From: a virus
Taxonomy: Duplodnaviria > Heunggongvirae > Uroviricota > Caudoviricetes
Virus record (IMG/VR): IMGVR_UViG_2695420687_000001
Coordinates: 1 to 7,314 of that record
Length of the DNA stretch: 7,314 nt
Direction: 5' to 3' (one strand)
Shown here: positions 1-7,314 of the stretch, one piece after another
How the letters are laid out: each line of letters opens with the position of its first letter
Position numbering within the stretch: position 1 is the first letter of the stretch
The notes under the pieces: model-generated
The model's input: the letters and a program-made list of their open reading frames with translations, nothing else
What the model was told of the DNA's origin: nothing
Databases searched by the model: none
Position numbers and translations under genes: made by a program

Positions 1-986
1 AGCAGGTGAGCCGTAATTATCATCTGCGCGGGCGTATTCTGCAGGTGCCGTCGAATTATAACCCGCAGACGCGGCAATACAGCGGTATNNAGNANGNCAC
101 TNNNCATTAACGGCAGATTTCTTTCCGATGCAAAGTCGACAGCAGCCTTTGCTTCAGGCGACATATCACCACGAACAGCCCTCGAAACCGCACTCGCTGT
201 ATTTTCCAGCCCCTTACCAATACCACCAATGCCAGCAGAAATTACCGTTTGTAACGGATCAATATCTTCTCCACCAGCAAGGCTGGTGGCTCCCTGTAGT
301 GCTAAATCTGTAGCTGCTGATTTTCCTATGGCACCAAGCACCGTTCCAGCCCTGCCCGCTGGTGTAAACGCCAGCGCATTAGCAAGAAACGAAGTCAGGT
401 CTTGCGGTGATAAACCCGGCTTGTTCAGGGCATAATCACCTGATGGCAGAGAAACGATAGTATTCCCCTTCTCATCCTGCCTTAATGTCGCCCCCATTCC
501 CTGAAGAATCTTTTCCTGAGACGCGTCAGAGCCGAAAAGTTGAGACCATCCAGCCTTCAGGGCATCCATGCTTAGTGAGTTCAATTCTGGGGCAGAGGCG
601 ACATTTTGCAGTCTCTCCATCTCTGGAGTCATTCGGCTTTCGCCTGTTATAGCATCGCGCATCGCAGCCCCAAGACTGGCTCCCTGTTCTGCTGAACGCT
701 CAAGCCCCTCTCTTTGCTGAGTAGCTAACTTTGCATACCCTGACGCAAGAGAATTATCAGATGATGTATGTTGAATATTTTGAGTTGCTGATTGGGATCG
801 GTCTATTTCATTCGTAGATGGTAGTGGATAGGCAGCATAAAAAGCCTGCTTAGCCTGCTCTACACTTTCTCCGGCTTGCGGGGCCACGACTTCATTGAAG
901 TATTGCTCCTGAGCCTGCACTTTTTGTTCTGGTGCTAACGCCTGATACTGTGGAGAGGCGATAACATCTTTCCATGCTTTAGCCAT
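1..986 (-). CDS. Partial CDS (5' part only; 3' end beyond window edge): hypothetical phage protein, possibly P22 gp16-like ejection protein
   Basis: ATG at 986-984 overlaps the stop of the upstream gene (TAATG). I translated the minus-strand frame codon by codon from 986 down to 105 (294 codons, MAKAWKDVIASPQYQALAPEQ…) and found no stop. It then runs into ambiguous bases (89-104) and stays open to position 3, but that last stretch is unreliable. Not in the supplied ORF track, presumably because it has no stop inside the window. Confidence 0.5.
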   Translation of the reverse strand, partial: MAKAWKDVIASPQYQALAPEQKVQAQEQYFNEVVAPQAGESVEQAKQAFYAAYPLPSTNEIDRSQSATQNIQHTSSDNSLASGYAKLATQQREGLERSAEQGASLGAAMRDAITGESRMTPEMERLQNVASAPELNSLSMDALKAGWSQLFGSDASQEKILQGMGATLRQDEKGNTIVSLPSGDYALNKPGLSPQDLTSFLANALAFTPAGRAGTVLGAIGKSAATDLALQGATSLAGGEDIDPLQTVISAGIGGIGKGLENTASAVSRAVRGDMSPEAKAAVDFASERNLPLMXSXXXXTAVLPRLRVIIRRHLQNTPAQMIITAHL

Positions 987-2395
987 TAATCACCCCATAG
1001 TGAAGAAAAATTACTGCTGGCTGCTGGCTGTGATACCTGCTCAGATTGCGGCAATGTCTGCGACGAAGAAGAAGAAGTTCCTCTGTCAACTGCTGAAATA
1101 ACACGCAAAGCATCATAAGCTCGACCAGAAGCAGCTTTCAGCGAATTGAACTGGTTTTCCATCTTCCGGCGCTTGGTATCAATGGTTTTTGTGGAGTCGC
1201 CAGGCTGAGGGAAATACATTTGATAATATTTTGACATTTCAGCAGGTACGATAGCTGCCCCTGTTTCCTGACGGAGTATTGCCATTATTGCGTCATTAGC
1301 ATTAACAACGTATTGCTGCTCTGTTGGGCTGAGCGTTAAGTTAGCCAGCGTCCCATTACCCAAAGCATTATTAATGATCGCCACTCGCTGTGGGCTAAGC
1401 TGGCCTTTCAGTGTATCCATTGAATCAAGAGCATCCCTAACTCTGTATGCAAATCCAGCAGCTTTTTTAGCCCCTTCTGGCGACTTTTCCATGATCTTTT
1501 GGGCTGTTGGCAAAGCTATTGGACGAAACCCATCTCCAGATATTGGCTGGTTTAGTTTTCCCTGCTCTTCACTTCCGTCTGTGTAGTATTTTGTGACAGT
1601 GCCATCATCGTTTTCCCTAACACTCATTAATTTTTTGGCGTTTGTATTAATTCCAGCCGCTGCCCCCTCTGGATCCGCCTTTAACATTTGCGCGTACTGA
1701 TTGTAATTCTGCATTGCGGCTGTTGGTGCATATGCTGACGTTAACGCATTTGCTCGGCTAATATCCTGCCCTCTCGCCTGAAGCGCCTCTCCAGCCTGAT
1801 TGCTGCGGATTGTCTCTGCCAACTTGCCACGCTCAATATCCCGACCTTCCATTCGATCTTTGATATCGAAGTACTTCTCATGACCGAGAGAAAACAGTGC
1901 CATACTACCAGCAAGCCGCTGGAATTCCTGTGGATCATTAACATGCATTTCGGCAACAGACTCAGGAGAAATTCCCAAGCGACGCATTTCATCTTCGTTA
2001 TCTGCTATGAATTTTCCAAATGCCCCAGTTCCGAGCGAAGATGCGATTTGAGCACTAGTCGCAAGATGACCAATAGAATTTCTCTGGTCGTCATCAATAA
2101 AGCCCATCCCTTTCTGAACGCTTTCAAATTCTTCTGGATACTCAGAAATAAGACTGCGCATTTTGTTTCTGTCTCCAGACTCAAAAGCCCCGGCATATGC
2201 TTTCTGAAACTCTGCTTTACGCTGTTGTTGACGTGCCTGCTGATTAATCTCAGCAACGCCTCTTAGCCCCTGTAGCGCCATTAAACCTACGTTTGGCTGC
2301 TGCTGATACTGCACAGGCTGAGGAACGGAAGAACGAGGAGCATTATCATTTTGCGGTGCCATGCTAGGCAGCCCGCCAAGTTGCCATGTCGCCAT
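986..2395 (-). CDS. Hypothetical phage structural protein; putative ejection/internal virion protein (P22 gp20-like, hypothesis)
   Basis: 469-codon ORF coupled at both ends by TAATG overlaps (2395 and 986). Gln/Ala/Ser-rich, with a low-complexity Ser tract near the C-terminus. No resemblance to lambda J. Size is close to P22 gp20 (~471 aa). Functional call is inferred, not verified. Confidence 0.55.
   Translation of the reverse strand: MATWQLGGLPSMAPQNDNAPRSSVPQPVQYQQQPNVGLMALQGLRGVAEINQQARQQQRKAEFQKAYAGAFESGDRNKMRSLISEYPEEFESVQKGMGFIDDDQRNSIGHLATSAQIASSLGTGAFGKFIADNEDEMRRLGISPESVAEMHVNDPQEFQRLAGSMALFSLGHEKYFDIKDRMEGRDIERGKLAETIRSNQAGEALQARGQDISRANALTSAYAPTAAMQNYNQYAQMLKADPEGAAAGINTNAKKLMSVRENDDGTVTKYYTDGSEEQGKLNQPISGDGFRPIALPTAQKIMEKSPEGAKKAAGFAYRVRDALDSMDTLKGQLSPQRVAIINNALGNGTLANLTLSPTEQQYVVNANDAIMAILRQETGAAIVPAEMSKYYQMYFPQPGDSTKTIDTKRRKMENQFNSLKAASGRAYDALRVISAVDRGTSSSSSQTLPQSEQVSQPAASSNFSSLWGD
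1065..1076. repeat. (GAA)4 trinucleotide tract, giving (TCT)n poly-Ser codons on the coding strand
   Basis: Plus strand reads gaagaagaagaa at 1065-1076; on the minus strand it encodes the SSSSS tract near the C-terminus of the 469-aa protein. An adjacent tandem heptamer, ctgctgg x2, sits at 1014-1027. Confidence 0.6.
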
Positions 2396-3072
2396 TAGAA
2401 TCCAAGCCCCCCAACAAGACCAATAAGCCCACCACCAATAGCCCCGGCGACATTACCTATACCCGGAACAACGGAACCAAGTTGCGCACCCGCTAAAGCG
2501 CCTGATGCCGCCCCACCAATACCACGCGCAAGACTGGATGGCTGCTGCGCCTGACCTGCACGAATAGCGCCAAGCCCCTGCAAGAGTTGTCCGGTATTAT
2601 TGGCGTAGTTTTGCCCTGCTGTTGCCTGCCCTGATGCCGCATTCATCCCGACATTTAGCAGGTTTCCATAATTTTGCATTTGCCCACTGAGCCAATTGTT
2701 ATAAAGCATGGGCGCAATGGAAGATAACTGGTTACTGGTAGCTGTTGTGCCAAGCCCCCCGGTAGCTTCTGCTGAGACAAGGTTCTGATAACGGGCCTGA
2801 TCTGCTTGTGTTTTATATAAACCAGAACCAAAGAAATCATTCGCGGCTTTATTCTGCCCTTCCAGAGTCATCAGTCCTTGTAGTTGTTGTAAAGCAGGCA
2901 ATCCGACTTCTGCATACGGCTTGAGATTATTCATCACCGTATTCCACTGCTCGCGCTGCAAATCAATTGCCTGCTGCTGGGCCTTCGCCTGAGCTTTAGA
3001 GGCACCACCATCACCGCCTTTTTCGTATACGGCACGATTGAGATATTTATGAGCTATATGGGTAATTAACAT
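2395..3072 (-). CDS. Hypothetical phage structural protein; putative ejection/internal virion protein (P22 gp7-like, hypothesis)
   Basis: 225-codon ORF with ATG start and a Shine-Dalgarno. N-terminal charged/Gln-rich region, C-terminal Gly/Ala-rich hydrophobic tail (…GIGNVAGAIGGGLIGLVGGLGF). Stop overlaps the next start (TAATG). Not similar to lambda gpI. The functional call rests only on size, gene order and composition; the ORF itself is likely real. Confidence 0.55.
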   Translation of the reverse strand: MLITHIAHKYLNRAVYEKGGDGGASKAQAKAQQQAIDLQREQWNTVMNNLKPYAEVGLPALQQLQGLMTLEGQNKAANDFFGSGLYKTQADQARYQNLVSAEATGGLGTTATSNQLSSIAPMLYNNWLSGQMQNYGNLLNVGMNAASGQATAGQNYANNTGQLLQGLGAIRAGQAQQPSSLARGIGGAASGALAGAQLGSVVPGIGNVAGAIGGGLIGLVGGLGF

Positions 3073-3080
3073 TCGCTGAA

Positions 3081-3086
3081 TTCCTT
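3081..3086 (-). promoter_or_regulatory. Shine-Dalgarno (AAGGAA) for the 225-aa gene
   Basis: Plus-strand ttcctt is AAGGAA on the minus strand, 8 nt upstream of the ATG at 3072, within the 28-nt K-remnant/225-aa intergenic spacer. Confidence 0.4.
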
Positions 3087-3100
3087 ATATTGTTGCCGAG

Positions 3101-3553
3101 TTAACTGATAAAGCGCCACCAGTCATCCTCACGCTCAAAATCCGGCATATCAATTCCCGCCAGATGGTAGGCATCCCGGAACAGCGTGTAACAGTCCGTC
3201 ACCCCGTGCTCAAAGCGCCGTCCTGTCAGATGTGGCACACAGCGGAATTTATGAATTTCCCCCCGGCAGACCAGCCACCAGGACAGTGCACTTTTTATCT
3301 GCAGCCGCCGGTCGGCCTCGCTCAGCCAGGGCAGACCACCGGGATGACTGTGGACCAGTGCCACAATCTCCCCCTGCATCTCTGCCCGCAGCCAGTCTTC
3401 CGGTGCAATACGAAAATACGCCTCCGGCTCTGCAGAGATATTCACACAAGGGATATACCGCTCCCCCTCCGGCGTTCTCACCACGAAGCCGCACGACTCC
3501 GCAGGCGCACACCGCCGGGCATGCGCCAGAATCGCTGATTCTGTCTGTGTCAT
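3101..3553 (-). CDS. K: Tail assembly protein K (lambda gpK-like), C-terminally truncated; likely pseudogene or remnant
   Basis: 150-codon ORF with N-terminus MTQTESAILAHARRCAPAESCGFVV… as in lambda K. The JAMM/MPN motif HSHPGGLPWLSEAD (HxHx7Sx2D) is intact at 3311-3352. The NlpC/P60-type region begins (…GVTDCYTLF…) but the ORF ends at …DDWWRFIS*, about 50 residues short of lambda K (199 aa as I recall). Confidence 0.85.
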   Translation of the reverse strand: MTQTESAILAHARRCAPAESCGFVVRTPEGERYIPCVNISAEPEAYFRIAPEDWLRAEMQGEIVALVHSHPGGLPWLSEADRRLQIKSALSWWLVCRGEIHKFRCVPHLTGRRFEHGVTDCYTLFRDAYHLAGIDMPDFEREDDWWRFIS

Positions 3554-3558
3554 TGGAT

Positions 3559-4257
3559 TTACTGCGAAAGTTTGTTAATGGAAAGGAAACCGCCAAAATT
3601 AACCGCCATGCCGCGCATCTCACACCCGCGCATGCACTTGCTGCATCTGTCCTTACGGATATCGGTGGTGGGTTTATCGAACTCATCCGCCACCGCAGGA
3701 CCGTTATACCCGCATTCATCTCCCCGGTAATCCCACATACAGGTGTTCGCCAGCATGATGCGACCGGGAAACAGCGCTCCGTCCGTCTCCGTCGGTGTTG
3801 CCAGCACAAACGAGGCTGTCATGGCCGTCAGCTCTGACATCTGCTCCACCACCCAGCGGTCGCTCAGCTCCTGCTCCGGGTCCGCTTCCGGATTGCCCGC
3901 CACAAAATTCACCGCATCCAGAAAACAGGCATACACCCGGCGGCGGACCACCGTGGCCCCCACCAGGCTCTGCAGGTCCTCCGCCATTCCGGTGACCAGA
4001 CCGAACAGATTCGACACCGTCAGCGACGGGCGGGCACTGCTGCCCTTCCCGTTCATCTCAAAGCCACTGCCGTCAATCGGGTATACCTGATATTGCCGCC
4101 CCTGCCAGGTGACCGCCTCCCCTTTTTCATTCAGCTCATTACAGAAAAAATACCGCTCACCGCCCTGCACCGTCAGGTCAATTTCCCAGAGCACCACCCG
4201 CGGTGACTGCTCTGATTTAACCGACTCGTTCAGACTTTCTTCATGAATGTCCTGCAT
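3559..4257 (-). CDS. L: Minor tail protein L (lambda gpL-like)
   Basis: 232-codon ORF, the same length as lambda gpL. N-terminus MQDIHEESLNE…VVLWEIDLT…GGERYFFCNE and C-terminus …NFGGFLSINKLSQ closely resemble lambda L from memory. The C-terminal cysteine cluster is conserved (…NTCMWDYRGDECGY… and …DRCSKCMRGC…). Confidence 0.92.
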   Translation of the reverse strand: MQDIHEESLNESVKSEQSPRVVLWEIDLTVQGGERYFFCNELNEKGEAVTWQGRQYQVYPIDGSGFEMNGKGSSARPSLTVSNLFGLVTGMAEDLQSLVGATVVRRRVYACFLDAVNFVAGNPEADPEQELSDRWVVEQMSELTAMTASFVLATPTETDGALFPGRIMLANTCMWDYRGDECGYNGPAVADEFDKPTTDIRKDRCSKCMRGCEMRGMAVNFGGFLSINKLSQ

Positions 4258-4598
4258 CAGTTCACCACCTGCTCAATCGTACAGCTGAAATCACTGTACC
4301 GGGCGTTATCCGTGACGCTCCACTCCCGGCACACCACCCTCACCGTCCGGTTATGTTTCGGCGGTCGCCACAAAAAGGCACGGTAACCACCATGCCAGGA
4401 TAAAAATTCATCCAGCCAGCGCCGGGTTGACTCATCCGTCACCCGGAACACCGCCTGAAACGTCTTCAGTTGAGGATTCAGCCCTGTGGGGCGGCGCTGT
4501 TCATAACCGTCACCAAACCGCACCCTCACCACCGACGGCTTCTCACTCACCTGCATCCCTTCACGCGGGACCAGATGCAGCGTTTTTATCTCAGCCAC
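4257..4598 (-). CDS. M: Minor tail protein M (lambda gpM-like)
   Basis: 113-codon ORF. Internal segment …SVVRVRFGDGYEQR… and C-terminus …IEQVVN are recognisably lambda gpM-like. The start codon at 4598-4596 is GTG, not ATG, and is preceded by a GGAGGA Shine-Dalgarno. It overlaps the 3' end of H by 8 nt, and its stop overlaps the L start (TGATG). Confidence 0.88.
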   Translation of the reverse strand: MAEIKTLHLVPREGMQVSEKPSVVRVRFGDGYEQRRPTGLNPQLKTFQAVFRVTDESTRRWLDEFLSWHGGYRAFLWRPPKHNRTVRVVCREWSVTDNARYSDFSCTIEQVVN

Positions 4599-7206
4599 TC
4601 AGCATTCCTCCGTCACGTCGCATGGACAACATCACCGCCTGCACCCGCTGGTCAATCAGCTGCACAAGACTGCCTGCCGCCTCCGGCCCTATCTGGCCAT
4701 TAGTCCCGTCATTCTGAATGGCGATATGGTAGACCGGGGAATACACCAGGCCCGCACTACCGTTCATACTGCCCACCGCTCGCACACCCAGCGAGCCATC
4801 CGCCGCCCGGGTCAGGGGCATAATGGCTTCAGGACCGGCCTCCCCCATCAGCCCCGCCCCTTTTGCAAAGGCAAAGTACGTGGGCGTATCCACAATACTG
4901 TTGCTGTACGCACTCAGGTTTGCCGAGGTATACACGCCGCCTTTTGCATTGGCCACCGCTCCGCCCAGCCAGTCACCAATGCTGCCAATAAATCCTCCCG
5001 CACCGGACATACCGTTTGCCGCCGTCTTAATTCCGTTGACAATGGCCGCATTCATAAGAACTTTTGATATTTCCTGCAGTACGGATGAGGCCCAGTTGCG
5101 CCATTCCACTTTGTTTCCGTTCAGCATCTCCGTGATGTTATTCACCAGTCCTGAAATCCCCTCCGTTGCCAGCTGTGCTGCCTGTGAGGCGTAATCGGAC
5201 GCATTGTCCACCCAGTTACTGAGCCCCTCCTGCAAGCCTTTCTGCCAGTCCGCACGCTGCGCATCCGATTCGGCATAAAAGGCTGCCTGGTCCTTAAGGC
5301 GTTCGCTCAGATACTGCGCGTTCTGTGCCCGTGCCTGTCTGTAAAAATCCTCACTGATATCCCCGGTCTGATACTGAGACTGAAGGTCCGCATCCTTCTG
5401 GCGGAAGCTGTCGCGGATCTGCTGCAACTCCCGCATGCGTTCCCTGGCTCGTTCTCCCTGCCCGTATCCCAGCAGTTCGGCTTCATTTGATGCACGCGCA
5501 GCCACATTATCATTCTTCAGGGTCTCTTCCCGGGATCGCAACTGTTCCCGGATTTTTTGCTGGTCAATCAGGGCCGCGTTACGCAGCAGTTCCTGCTTCT
5601 GCATCTCCGTCAGGGTTTTCAGTTCGCCCTGCGCAGTCTGGTACTTCAGCTTCGCCAGCTCTGTATTCTGACCCGCCAGTGCCAGTTGCTCTTTCTGCTG
5701 CTTCAGTAGCCGGGAAAAACTGTCTTCCGCTTTTTCCGTCTCTGATTTTCCACCCCGGGATTTGGGTTTATTCGCCTCGTTATTGCGCCAGGCTTCCAGG
5801 GCATTACTGATATAACGTTGTCTCGCCTCCTGATACGGATCACCCACAAAACCGAGGTCATCCGCCGCATACCCCAGCCGGGCACGCTCTTTTTCTTCCC
5901 CTTTCAGTCTGGACAGGGCCAGCTCACGCTCTGTTTTTGTCAGGGCACTCTGCTGTTTATCATCCAGAGTGGCCTGTGGCAGCCGTAACGGCACATTCAC
6001 CAGTCCCTGCCGCTGCTGAAGCAGTTCATTACCCAGCCCCAGCAGACGGTTGAATTCCGTATGCTGACCGTTCATAACCAGCATGGACTGGTACACCTTA
6101 TTCTGCTCTGCCGCCTGCTGACGAATTAACGCCACACGACGGTCTTCCAGCCCGGCAAGCACATCCTGAATGGACTGCGCTTTTTCCTGCATCTGTGCCA
6201 GACGGGACTGCTCAACGGCAAGCTGCTCTGTTGCCTGAGCAAGCCCTTCCGTTACGGTCTTCACCGAGGTCAGATGGTTTATCATGAATCCGTCACCGGT
6301 CGTCCAGCCCGGATTAGCCAGCACATACTGATACCCGGCGATTTTTTCCTGCAGGGATTTCACCCGGCTGGCCTGCTCATCAATCAGCCGGTTCTGCTCT
6401 GTCAGCGCCGCCCGTGTTCGTCCTTCATTATCTGAGGCTTCAGGCAAAGACATTGACGGCGTTTTATGCGCGATTTCATCTATCGTCAGTGCATACTGGC
6501 GCGCAGACTCCCTGGCCTGCTCCTGATTCTGGTACAGCGTGTACCATGCTGCAGCCCCCAGCATCACCAGTCCGGGTACGCCACCAACCAGCCCCAGCGC
6601 ACCGCTCATCAGACGTGAGCCCACCGCCGTTGTACTGTTCAGCGCATTCTGGGCGGCGCTTCTGGCAGCAATATTTCTGTTCAGGCGTTCCTGTGTGGCC
6701 GCCAGACGGGCCTCTGCAGCAATCTGCATCTCCGTCCCGCGGGCTGCCGCCACGGCCTGCTGAGCACGGTACACGGCTGCTCTTGCCCGCGCCGTGGCAA
6801 TCTGCGTTCCCCTGAACTGTGCTTCCGCCAGTGCAACTTCATTACGTGCAGCCGTCACAAGTCCTGCCGTGGCAGACATCGCTCCGGAGGCCATATTGCC
6901 AAAGTACCGGGCCACCCCGACGGCAACCAGTGCCCCCACGGCTGTTGCCACATTATCAATCTGTCCGGCAACACCGTTCAGCACGCCGGAGAGCGTTTTC
7001 GTCACCCCGCTGGCCTCATTCGCACCACCCACCCAGGCCATAAAGGCGTTTTCCACCTTTGTGATCCCGTCAGAGACCGTTTCCGGCATGGCCGCGTATT
7101 CATCACGCAATACCTCCAGCTGGCTGATTAACGCAGGAACGACTTTATCCGCCGTCAGTTGACCATCGTCCGCCATCGCCTTCAGATCTTTACGGGCCAC
7201 GCCCAT
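4591..7206 (-). CDS. H: Phage tail tape measure protein (lambda gpH family)
   Basis: 871-codon minus-strand ORF with ATG at 7206-7204. The C-terminus (…[19 protein letters not shown]…[10 protein letters not shown]) matches, from memory, the conserved C-terminal domain of lambda gpH-type tape measure proteins. Long Ala/Gln/Arg/Glu-rich central region typical of tape measure coiled coils; hydrophobic Gly/Ala-rich segments near residues ~86-120 and ~195-225. Followed by M, L, K in lambda order. An in-frame stop lies 7 codons upstream (7228-7230), so the true N-terminus is uncertain. Confidence 0.9.
4606..4611 (-). promoter_or_regulatory. Shine-Dalgarno (GGAGGA) for M
   Basis: Plus-strand tcctcc is GGAGGA on the minus strand, 7 nt upstream of the GTG start of M; it lies inside the 3' end of H. 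Confidence 0.45.
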
Positions 7207-7314
7207 GCCTGCAGCCAGTGCACGCCTTCAATGACGCGGTACGCCACACGTTGAAAGAAGAAGAAAAACTGGCCAACTCCAGCGACTGGGGATATGACGC
7301 TCAGGCTTTCGCCC

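Follow-up and report, generated by a model that had tools for sequence, protein, structure and literature searches.

Genes of the Window

We analyzed a 7,314-nt stretch of DNA (virus record IMGVR_UViG_2695420687_000001, positions 1 to 7,314), the whole of which is called the window here, and three adjoining genes in its left part that resemble the ejection protein genes 7, 20, and 16 of phage P22. An exact-protein look-up identified the window as the entire contig CDRK01000332.1 (7,314 bp) of the draft Escherichia albertii assembly GCA_000936005.1. All long open reading frames (ORFs) are located on the minus strand, and the G+C content falls from ~0.58 to ~0.47 near position ~3100. Similarity searches divided the window into four unrelated segments, namely a fragment of the lambda-type tail-tip gene J (J′), the ejection cassette, a lambda-type tail block (H′-M-L-K′), and a fragment of the chromosomal gene ybjT (ybjT′). 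Every breakpoint between them falls in the middle of a gene. The cassette segment (105–3115) has a counterpart of 99.5% identity in E. coli TUM10008, and the tail block (3113–7224) matches the tail genes of many Stx-converting lambdoid phages at 97% identity.

The first gene of the cassette encodes an intact protein of 225 aa (positions 2395 to 3072, minus strand) and the second a protein of 469 aa (986 to 2395, minus strand). The third starts at 986 and runs leftwards. At both cassette junctions, 2395 and 986, the stop codon overlaps the next start codon by 1 nt in the motif TAATG. These 1-nt overlaps are retained across all related loci, for example in locus L006 (10001–10678, 10678–12102, and 12102–14207). 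Gln, Ala, and Gly together make up 42% of the 225-aa protein and 29% of each of the other two. The strand, the coupled starts, and the Gln/Ala/Gly-rich composition were found as they had been called in the original prediction, which was made from the letters of the window. The sizes it quoted for the P22 proteins (229, 471, and 609 aa) agreed with those of the fetched P22 sequences. It had also set the third gene at 294 aa or more. This holds for the 294 codons from 986 to 105; beyond them come a zone with Ns (89–104) and, on the opposite strand, a piece of gpJ that is unrelated to the gene (1–88).

Identification of the Ejection Protein Cassette

Sequence comparisons with Pfam, PHROG, and the P22 proteins themselves support the assignment of the three genes to a P22-type gp7-gp20-gp16 ejection cassette. 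The original prediction had proposed this identity, and its fallback, that the genes code for uncharacterised structural proteins replacing the tail tip, was wrong. The 225-aa protein matched PF25688 (P22_gp7) with an E value of 8.1e-72 (242 bits against a cut-off of 28) and was 55% identical to P22 gp7 in a BLASTP search (E 8e-53). In the 469-aa protein, PF16928 (Inj_translocase) was recognized at residues 34–213 (E 5.9e-59, 200 bits against a cut-off of 29.7) and phrog_917 was matched with an E value of 2.6e-109. BLASTP aligned only its N-terminal half, with residues 1–239 of P22 gp20 (38% identity, E 3e-45), and its C-terminal half gave no alignment to that protein. The gp16 fragment (105 to 986, minus strand) matched phrog_29864 (E 7.9e-113) and phrog_770, annotated as a DNA transfer protein (E 1.6e-34). 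It is identical to residues 1–294 of the complete 701-aa protein encoded on the Logan contig L004. This full-length copy, for which a precomputed PF26808 match exists, shares 30% identity with P22 gp16 across 482 aa (E 7e-52), and only ~85 residues of the window fragment overlap the P22-alignable part. The PHROG annotations of the three genes read "DNA ejection", "released from the phage upon host infection", and "DNA transfer protein". No match was obtained for any of the three proteins in NCBIfam, nor for gp7, gp20, and full-length gp16 in a sequence search against all PDB chains.

A fourth gene precedes them. The last ~50 nt of a gp14 (DUF2824) gene, together with the ribosome-binding site of gp7, were recognized at 3066 to 3115 (minus strand) by their 100% match to L004, where the complete 153-aa gene overlaps the start of gp7 by 7 nt. 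The gp14 protein is related to P22 gp14 (BLASTP, E 2e-7). The order gp14-gp7-gp20-gp16 with coupled starts was found, gp14 being present in the window only as this remnant. P22 has the same order, 14-7-20-16, and similarly tight stop/start overlaps, and the pairwise homology is significant for all four proteins. The sizes are similar as well (225, 469, and 701 aa against 229, 471, and 609 aa). However, the identities to the P22 proteins are low, at the percentages given above. The C-terminal half of the cassette gp20 is unrelated to that of P22, and the first ~210 residues of the cassette gp16 are without a P22 counterpart.

Among phages, gp20 (window 989–2395) is closest to that of the APSE phages, which infect Hamiltonella, a symbiont of aphids, at 52% identity over 93% of the length. 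P22-like phages of E. coli and Salmonella match its N-terminal half only, at 34–45%, and among 50,697 phage records there was no gp20 more than 60% identical. The APSE phages of Hamiltonella defensa are P22-like podoviruses, and they are complete phages without an island context.

The Cassette in Its Native Satellite Island

The exact gp7 protein is present in 339 blocks of the public collection. In all ten non-redundant places that carry it, it is located in an island of the form int...primase-DUF2824-gp7-gp20(-gp16)...AlpA-PerC. The island begins with a tyrosine integrase, AlpA, AntA, DUF4222, Ash, and several small ORFs, which are followed by a 918-aa Zn-ribbon/Toprim/DUF927 primase. After the primase come a 53-aa ORF, DUF2824 (gp14), gp7, gp20, gp16, a second AlpA gene (AlpA_1), and PerC. 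Damage was seen in three of the ten copies: in L014 gp20 is shortened and the primase and gp16 are lost, in L009 there is no gp16 gene call, and in E. coli TUM10008 (L015) gp16 is a pseudogene in RefSeq, beside an IS3 element. The same layout was found in E. coli TUM10008 and, at the published coordinates of the island EcCIMP1, in E. coli MP1. The core of a phage-inducible chromosomal island (PICI), that is, an integrase, an AlpA regulator, and a primase with no capsid or terminase genes, was present in all ten places (in L014 without the primase and gp16) and in MP1. Portal, coat, and terminase genes are absent from the related islands. At least 80% of the cassette is present in 177 of 5,426 complete E. 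coli genomes.

In published experiments, EcCIMP1 of E. coli MP1 behaved as a PICI whose excision required induction of the P22-like phage Kapi1, which also transduced it (PMC11773190). The cassette genes were labelled there as hypothetical or "DNA transfer", with a proposed packaging role, and they were not named as a gp7/gp20/gp16 set (PMC11773190). The cassette of the window is a copy of this type of satellite island, already described in 2025 with its P22-like helper phage. For the isolate from which the window comes, the island evidence is one 7.6-kb contig: in the assembly of run ERR738819, described below, a contig of 7,575 nt is colinear at 99.7% with the island of L006, beginning right behind the primase and ending shortly before perC. 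In EcCIMP1 (L125, MP1) the architecture is the same, with the same AlpA, AntA, Ash, Toprim/DUF927 primase, and PerC, and gp14 and gp7 are 98.7% and 99.6% identical. The hosts differ, E. albertii here and E. coli MP1 for EcCIMP1, and so do the two distal proteins, since gp20 and gp16 of L004 share just 35% and 22% identity with those of MP1 (469 and 701 aa against 439 and 906 aa). Because gp14 and gp7 are ~99% identical and gp20 and gp16 only 35% and 22%, the distal ejection genes appear to be swapped as alleles within the island family.

The dN/dS ratio (nonsynonymous to synonymous substitution rates), calculated for a single pair with the diverged island of E. coli CUWW11, was 0.28 for gp20 and 0.21 for gp16. 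These values are consistent with selection for function. Divergence among the ten loci with the exact gp7 was too small for such a calculation, and in the comparison with EcCIMP1 gp20 and gp16 were saturated (dS >1.5).

With P22-type gp14/gp7/gp20/gp16, the virion-protein module of a known satellite island now has a precise name. The hypothesis that the EcCIMP1 paper left open is thereby sharpened, which is a refinement of annotation rather than a discovery.

Two further features of the islands were observed. In the native island, a perfect 48-nt inverted repeat flanks a block of 7.5 kb that starts with the 53-aa ORF, includes gp14-gp7-gp20-gp16, and extends as far as alpA_1. The repeat lies directly after the primase gene (L006, 8809–8856 and 16387–16434) and is also found at both ends of L004. 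It is composed of 9-bp iterons (GTTGGTTCA, three to four times), with more copies of TGAACCAAC nearby; the iteron motif does not occur in the window. We take the repeat pair to resemble ori/crr-type iteron clusters such as those of P4. The related island of E. coli CUWW11 (L127, 7777–11348) carries gp20 and gp16, which share 83% and 98% identity with those of the window type, and is without gp14 and gp7. There, a DUF5906 replication protein replaces the Toprim/DUF927 primase, and an Abi-family gene is located beside perC.

Probable Mis-Assembly of the Draft Contig

The position of the cassette beside lambda-type tail genes is almost certainly the result of a mis-join in the draft assembly and not the mark of a hybrid phage. 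The exact gp20 and L proteins each have only one further recorded source, the Logan assembly of run ERR738819. In this assembly, contig_105 is 100% identical to window 105–3115 and continues on both flanks into ordinary island sequence. One flank holds the full gp14 gene, and the other the rest of the 701-aa gp16 gene and then an AlpA gene. Contig_241, which encodes the exact L protein, is 100% identical to window 3559–7224. Past 7224 it reads on into a full 1,080-aa tape measure gene, which is preceded by tail-tube, chaperone, and head-tail genes. The cassette and the tail segment are on separate contigs, and these read through positions 105, 3115, and 7224 unbranched. If the junctions existed in this genome, the assembly graph would fork at 105, 3115, and 7224, but the ERR738819 contigs pass through all three.

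The leftmost joint is the one marked by Ns. Window 1–88 (plus strand) is an internal fragment of gpJ, within which the contig ends. The gpJ genes of roughly 1,000 complete E. coli genomes match it at 88/88 nt (100%), and its plus-strand frame reads ...GRILQVPSNYNPQTRQYSG. Because it lies on the plus strand, the fragment is inverted relative to H-M-L-K. Between it and the gp16 fragment there is a zone of false overlap (89–104), over which the 8 Ns of the window are spread. All eight fall on positions where the continuations of J and gp16 differ, and all five positions at which the two agree were called (hypergeometric P = 0.013 for the placement of the Ns). The three remaining discordant positions carry the gp16 base. 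The pattern looks like a consensus made over two wrongly overlapped ends.

At the joint between the satellite cassette and lambda-type K, a three-way alignment of the window, the K gene (L002), and the gp14 gene (L004) placed the breakpoint at a 2-nt CG microhomology (3114–3115). Among 5,426 complete E. coli genomes, there was no place with at least 80% of a 1-kb query across this K′/gp14′ junction, and 4,387 matched one side of it. A 39-mer across the junction did not occur in GTDB species representatives, in IMG/VR, or in JGI metagenomes, a negative that is uninformative alone because the source assembly is not in the GTDB, IMG/VR, and JGI sets searched. What would mark a natural mosaic, the junction in a genome or its independent recurrence, was not found in these searches. 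A search for publications under the accessions GCA_000936005, ERR738819, and CDRK01 returned none. The cross-morphotype mosaic that the original prediction considered was not borne out, given the mid-gene breakpoints, the N-marked joint, and the 100% identity of both segments to sequences in separate normal contexts. Its observation that the cassette adjoins lambda-type K, with L, M, and H further upstream on the same strand, is accurate for the deposited contig and not demonstrably for any genome.

Taken together, window 105–3115 is very probably part of the virion-protein module of an EcCIMP1-type PICI, falsely joined with J′, H′-M-L-K′, and ybjT′ in a draft contig. Several points weigh against this interpretation. 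It is unproven that ERR738819 is the read set of GCA_000936005.1; the link between them consists of their being the only two recorded sources of the exact gp20 and L proteins and of 100% nucleotide identity over 6.7 kb. The missing support for the junctions was deduced from the continuity of contigs, since reads were not mapped. The joints at 3115 and 7224 are free of Ns and have a 2-nt microhomology, which also fits real illegitimate recombination. The gp16 copy had no match in the local Pfam or NCBIfam libraries. The presence of the island gp7, gp20, and gp16 in virions is a prediction from homology and island context, and the authors of the EcCIMP1 study suggested a packaging role instead (PMC11773190).

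The manner in which the joins arose was also considered. Collapse of repeats in a de Bruijn graph was ruled out, as no more than 2 nt are common to the parent sequences at 3115 and 7224. As to restriction sites, PstI sites are near the joints but not at them, and GCGC is present at 3115 only. A 9-mer, CGTTACGCC, is common to K and gp14 and lies 5 nt out of register at the 3115 joint (window 3109–3122). The clean joints at 3115 and 7224 both have the form ...CG|CC..., and ybjT contains TACGCCAC 20 nt inside. The shared 9-mer, the CG|CC form, and TACGCCAC could be a clue to the origin of the chimeric molecules or joins, or a coincidence.

Alternative Explanations

It is unlikely that the junctions are real. 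The window would then be a scrambled, non-functional graveyard of prophage and satellite pieces (ybjT′::H′-M-L-K′::gp14′-gp7-gp20-gp16′::J′), left by successive illegitimate recombinations, with intact parents kept alongside. Decayed prophages do occur in enterobacterial genomes, and the clean joints at 3115 and 7224, with their microhomology and the out-of-register 9-mer at 3115, would suit such a history. However, this history would require an inversion plus three or four separate events, each in the middle of a gene, all within 7.3 kb, and one of the joints is an N-filled pseudo-overlap that tracks the disagreements of its parents. In addition, the independent assembly is unbranched through 105, 3115, and 7224, the exact K′ protein was recorded on the deposited contig only and was not called in ERR738819 (exact-protein look-up), and the junction was found neither in the 5,426 E. 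coli genomes nor in the three collections scanned.

A different question is whether the cassette of this isolate came from a complete or decayed P22-like prophage and not from a satellite island, which we regard as very improbable. Its gene order is that of P22, and compared with the helper phage Kapi1, gp14 and gp7 (the latter against Kapi1_056) are 83% and 57% identical, gp20 is 35% identical in its N-terminal part only, and the relationship of gp16 is undetectable. Against such a source, the whole 7,575-nt ERR738819 contig follows the island sequence and shares just 372 nt with Kapi1, and the phage records held no gp20 above the 60% identity mentioned earlier. The upstream genes differ too. 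Where P22 and Kapi1 have a head operon (portal, scaffold, coat, gp4, gp10, and gp26), the native loci have the 53-aa ORF and the Toprim/DUF927 primase, so that the P22-like head genes which the original prediction expected upstream in the source are replaced by a satellite primase.

A functional hybrid phage with a lambda-type tail and P22-type ejection proteins is scarcely credible. The only point for it is that K′ and gp7 are co-linear and lie on one strand. H is without ~200 N-terminal residues, K has lost its C-terminal domain, gene I is missing, and of J there is just an inverted 88-nt scrap. None of the 50,697 phage records covers 80% or more of the window, and among the matches listed there is none that extends over both halves. 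Read at face value, the contig would have implied a siphovirus/podovirus hybrid; the diagnosis of a chimera averts this false lead and marks CDRK01000332.1 as mis-assembled.

Proposed Role of the Island Ejection Proteins

In P22, the capsid is loaded with gp7, gp20, and gp16, which leave it at infection and build a channel for DNA across the cell envelope. The EcCIMP1-type PICI is a satellite of P22-like podoviruses, and the products of its gp14-gp7-gp20-gp16 genes would most likely be loaded into capsids made by the helper. There, they may serve the delivery of island DNA or may modify the particles of the helper. As a tentative proposal, which we hold to be possible but not probable, satellites of the EcCIMP1 family may carry their own full gp14-gp7-gp20-gp16 set, with gp20 and gp16 alleles swapped between islands that are otherwise nearly identical, and load it into P22-like helper capsids, either securing delivery of island DNA or spoiling the helper's particles. 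If this were true, it would represent a satellite strategy directed at the ejection machinery and not at capsid size or packaging specificity. The EcCIMP1 paper treats the cassette genes only as possible packaging factors.

The ybjT Fragment and the Lambda-Type Tail Block

The right end of the window (7225 to 7314, plus strand) is an internal fragment of chromosomal ybjT, within which the contig ends, with 89/90 nt identity to the gene of E. albertii NBRC 107761. The comparison set consisted of GTDB species representatives retrieved with a degenerate ybjT pattern. In this set, the other near-full-length matches, including those of E. coli, E. ruysiae, and Shigella, were at most 89% identical, and one partial match of 82 nt reached 91.5%. 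A separate similarity search found no close E. coli match to the fragment. The breakpoint at 7224 lies inside the ybjT ORF, which is intact (476 aa) in the E. albertii type strain, and has a 2-nt CG microhomology. The possibility that 7225–7314 is a divergent N-terminus of the tape measure gene was ruled out by an in-frame stop upstream of 7206 and by the 99% match to E. albertii ybjT. In phage record ON470620 (L017, 2767–4577), ybjT, ybjS, amiD, ybjQ, ybjP, and artP follow directly after a P2-type tail-fibre gene H. Because these host chromosome genes are included, this record extends beyond the end of the prophage.

The tail block contains two intact lambda-type genes, coding for minor tail protein L (232 aa, 3559 to 4257, minus strand; PF05100, E 1.7e-90) and minor tail protein M (113 aa, 4257 to 4598, minus strand; PF05939, E 4.8e-29). 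The tape measure gene H (4591 to 7224, minus strand; ORF 7206 to 4591) lacks ~203 N-terminal codons, and its product aligned with positions 199–1116 of the 1123-position profile phrog_339. It is 100% identical to L005, where the gene is 1,080 aa long and extends beyond 7224. On the other side, the chimeric K′ ORF of 150 aa (3101 to 3553, minus strand; PF14464 Prok-JAB, E 2.8e-16) encodes residues 1–146 of K, with the JAB/MPN domain only, followed by four codons from the cassette side and a stop. The NlpC/P60 part was not found in it by the Pfam search. A complete lambda-type H-M-L-K-I-J set is not present, since H is without ~203 residues, K ends at residue 146, gene I is absent from the window, and J is the inverted 88-nt fragment. 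The block is 97% identical to many Stx1a/Stx2c phages, and M and L are intact as in the lambda-type tail genes of Stx-converting and other lambdoid prophages; the window differs from these in that H and K break off where their segment ends and neither I nor J comes next. In contig_241 the same DNA is located in a normal tail operon. In the Stx2a phage F349 (L002, 3488–5083), there is a 1.6-kb insertion between L and K relative to the window. It holds an antirepressor gene and two small ORFs and is an ordinary moron-type difference.

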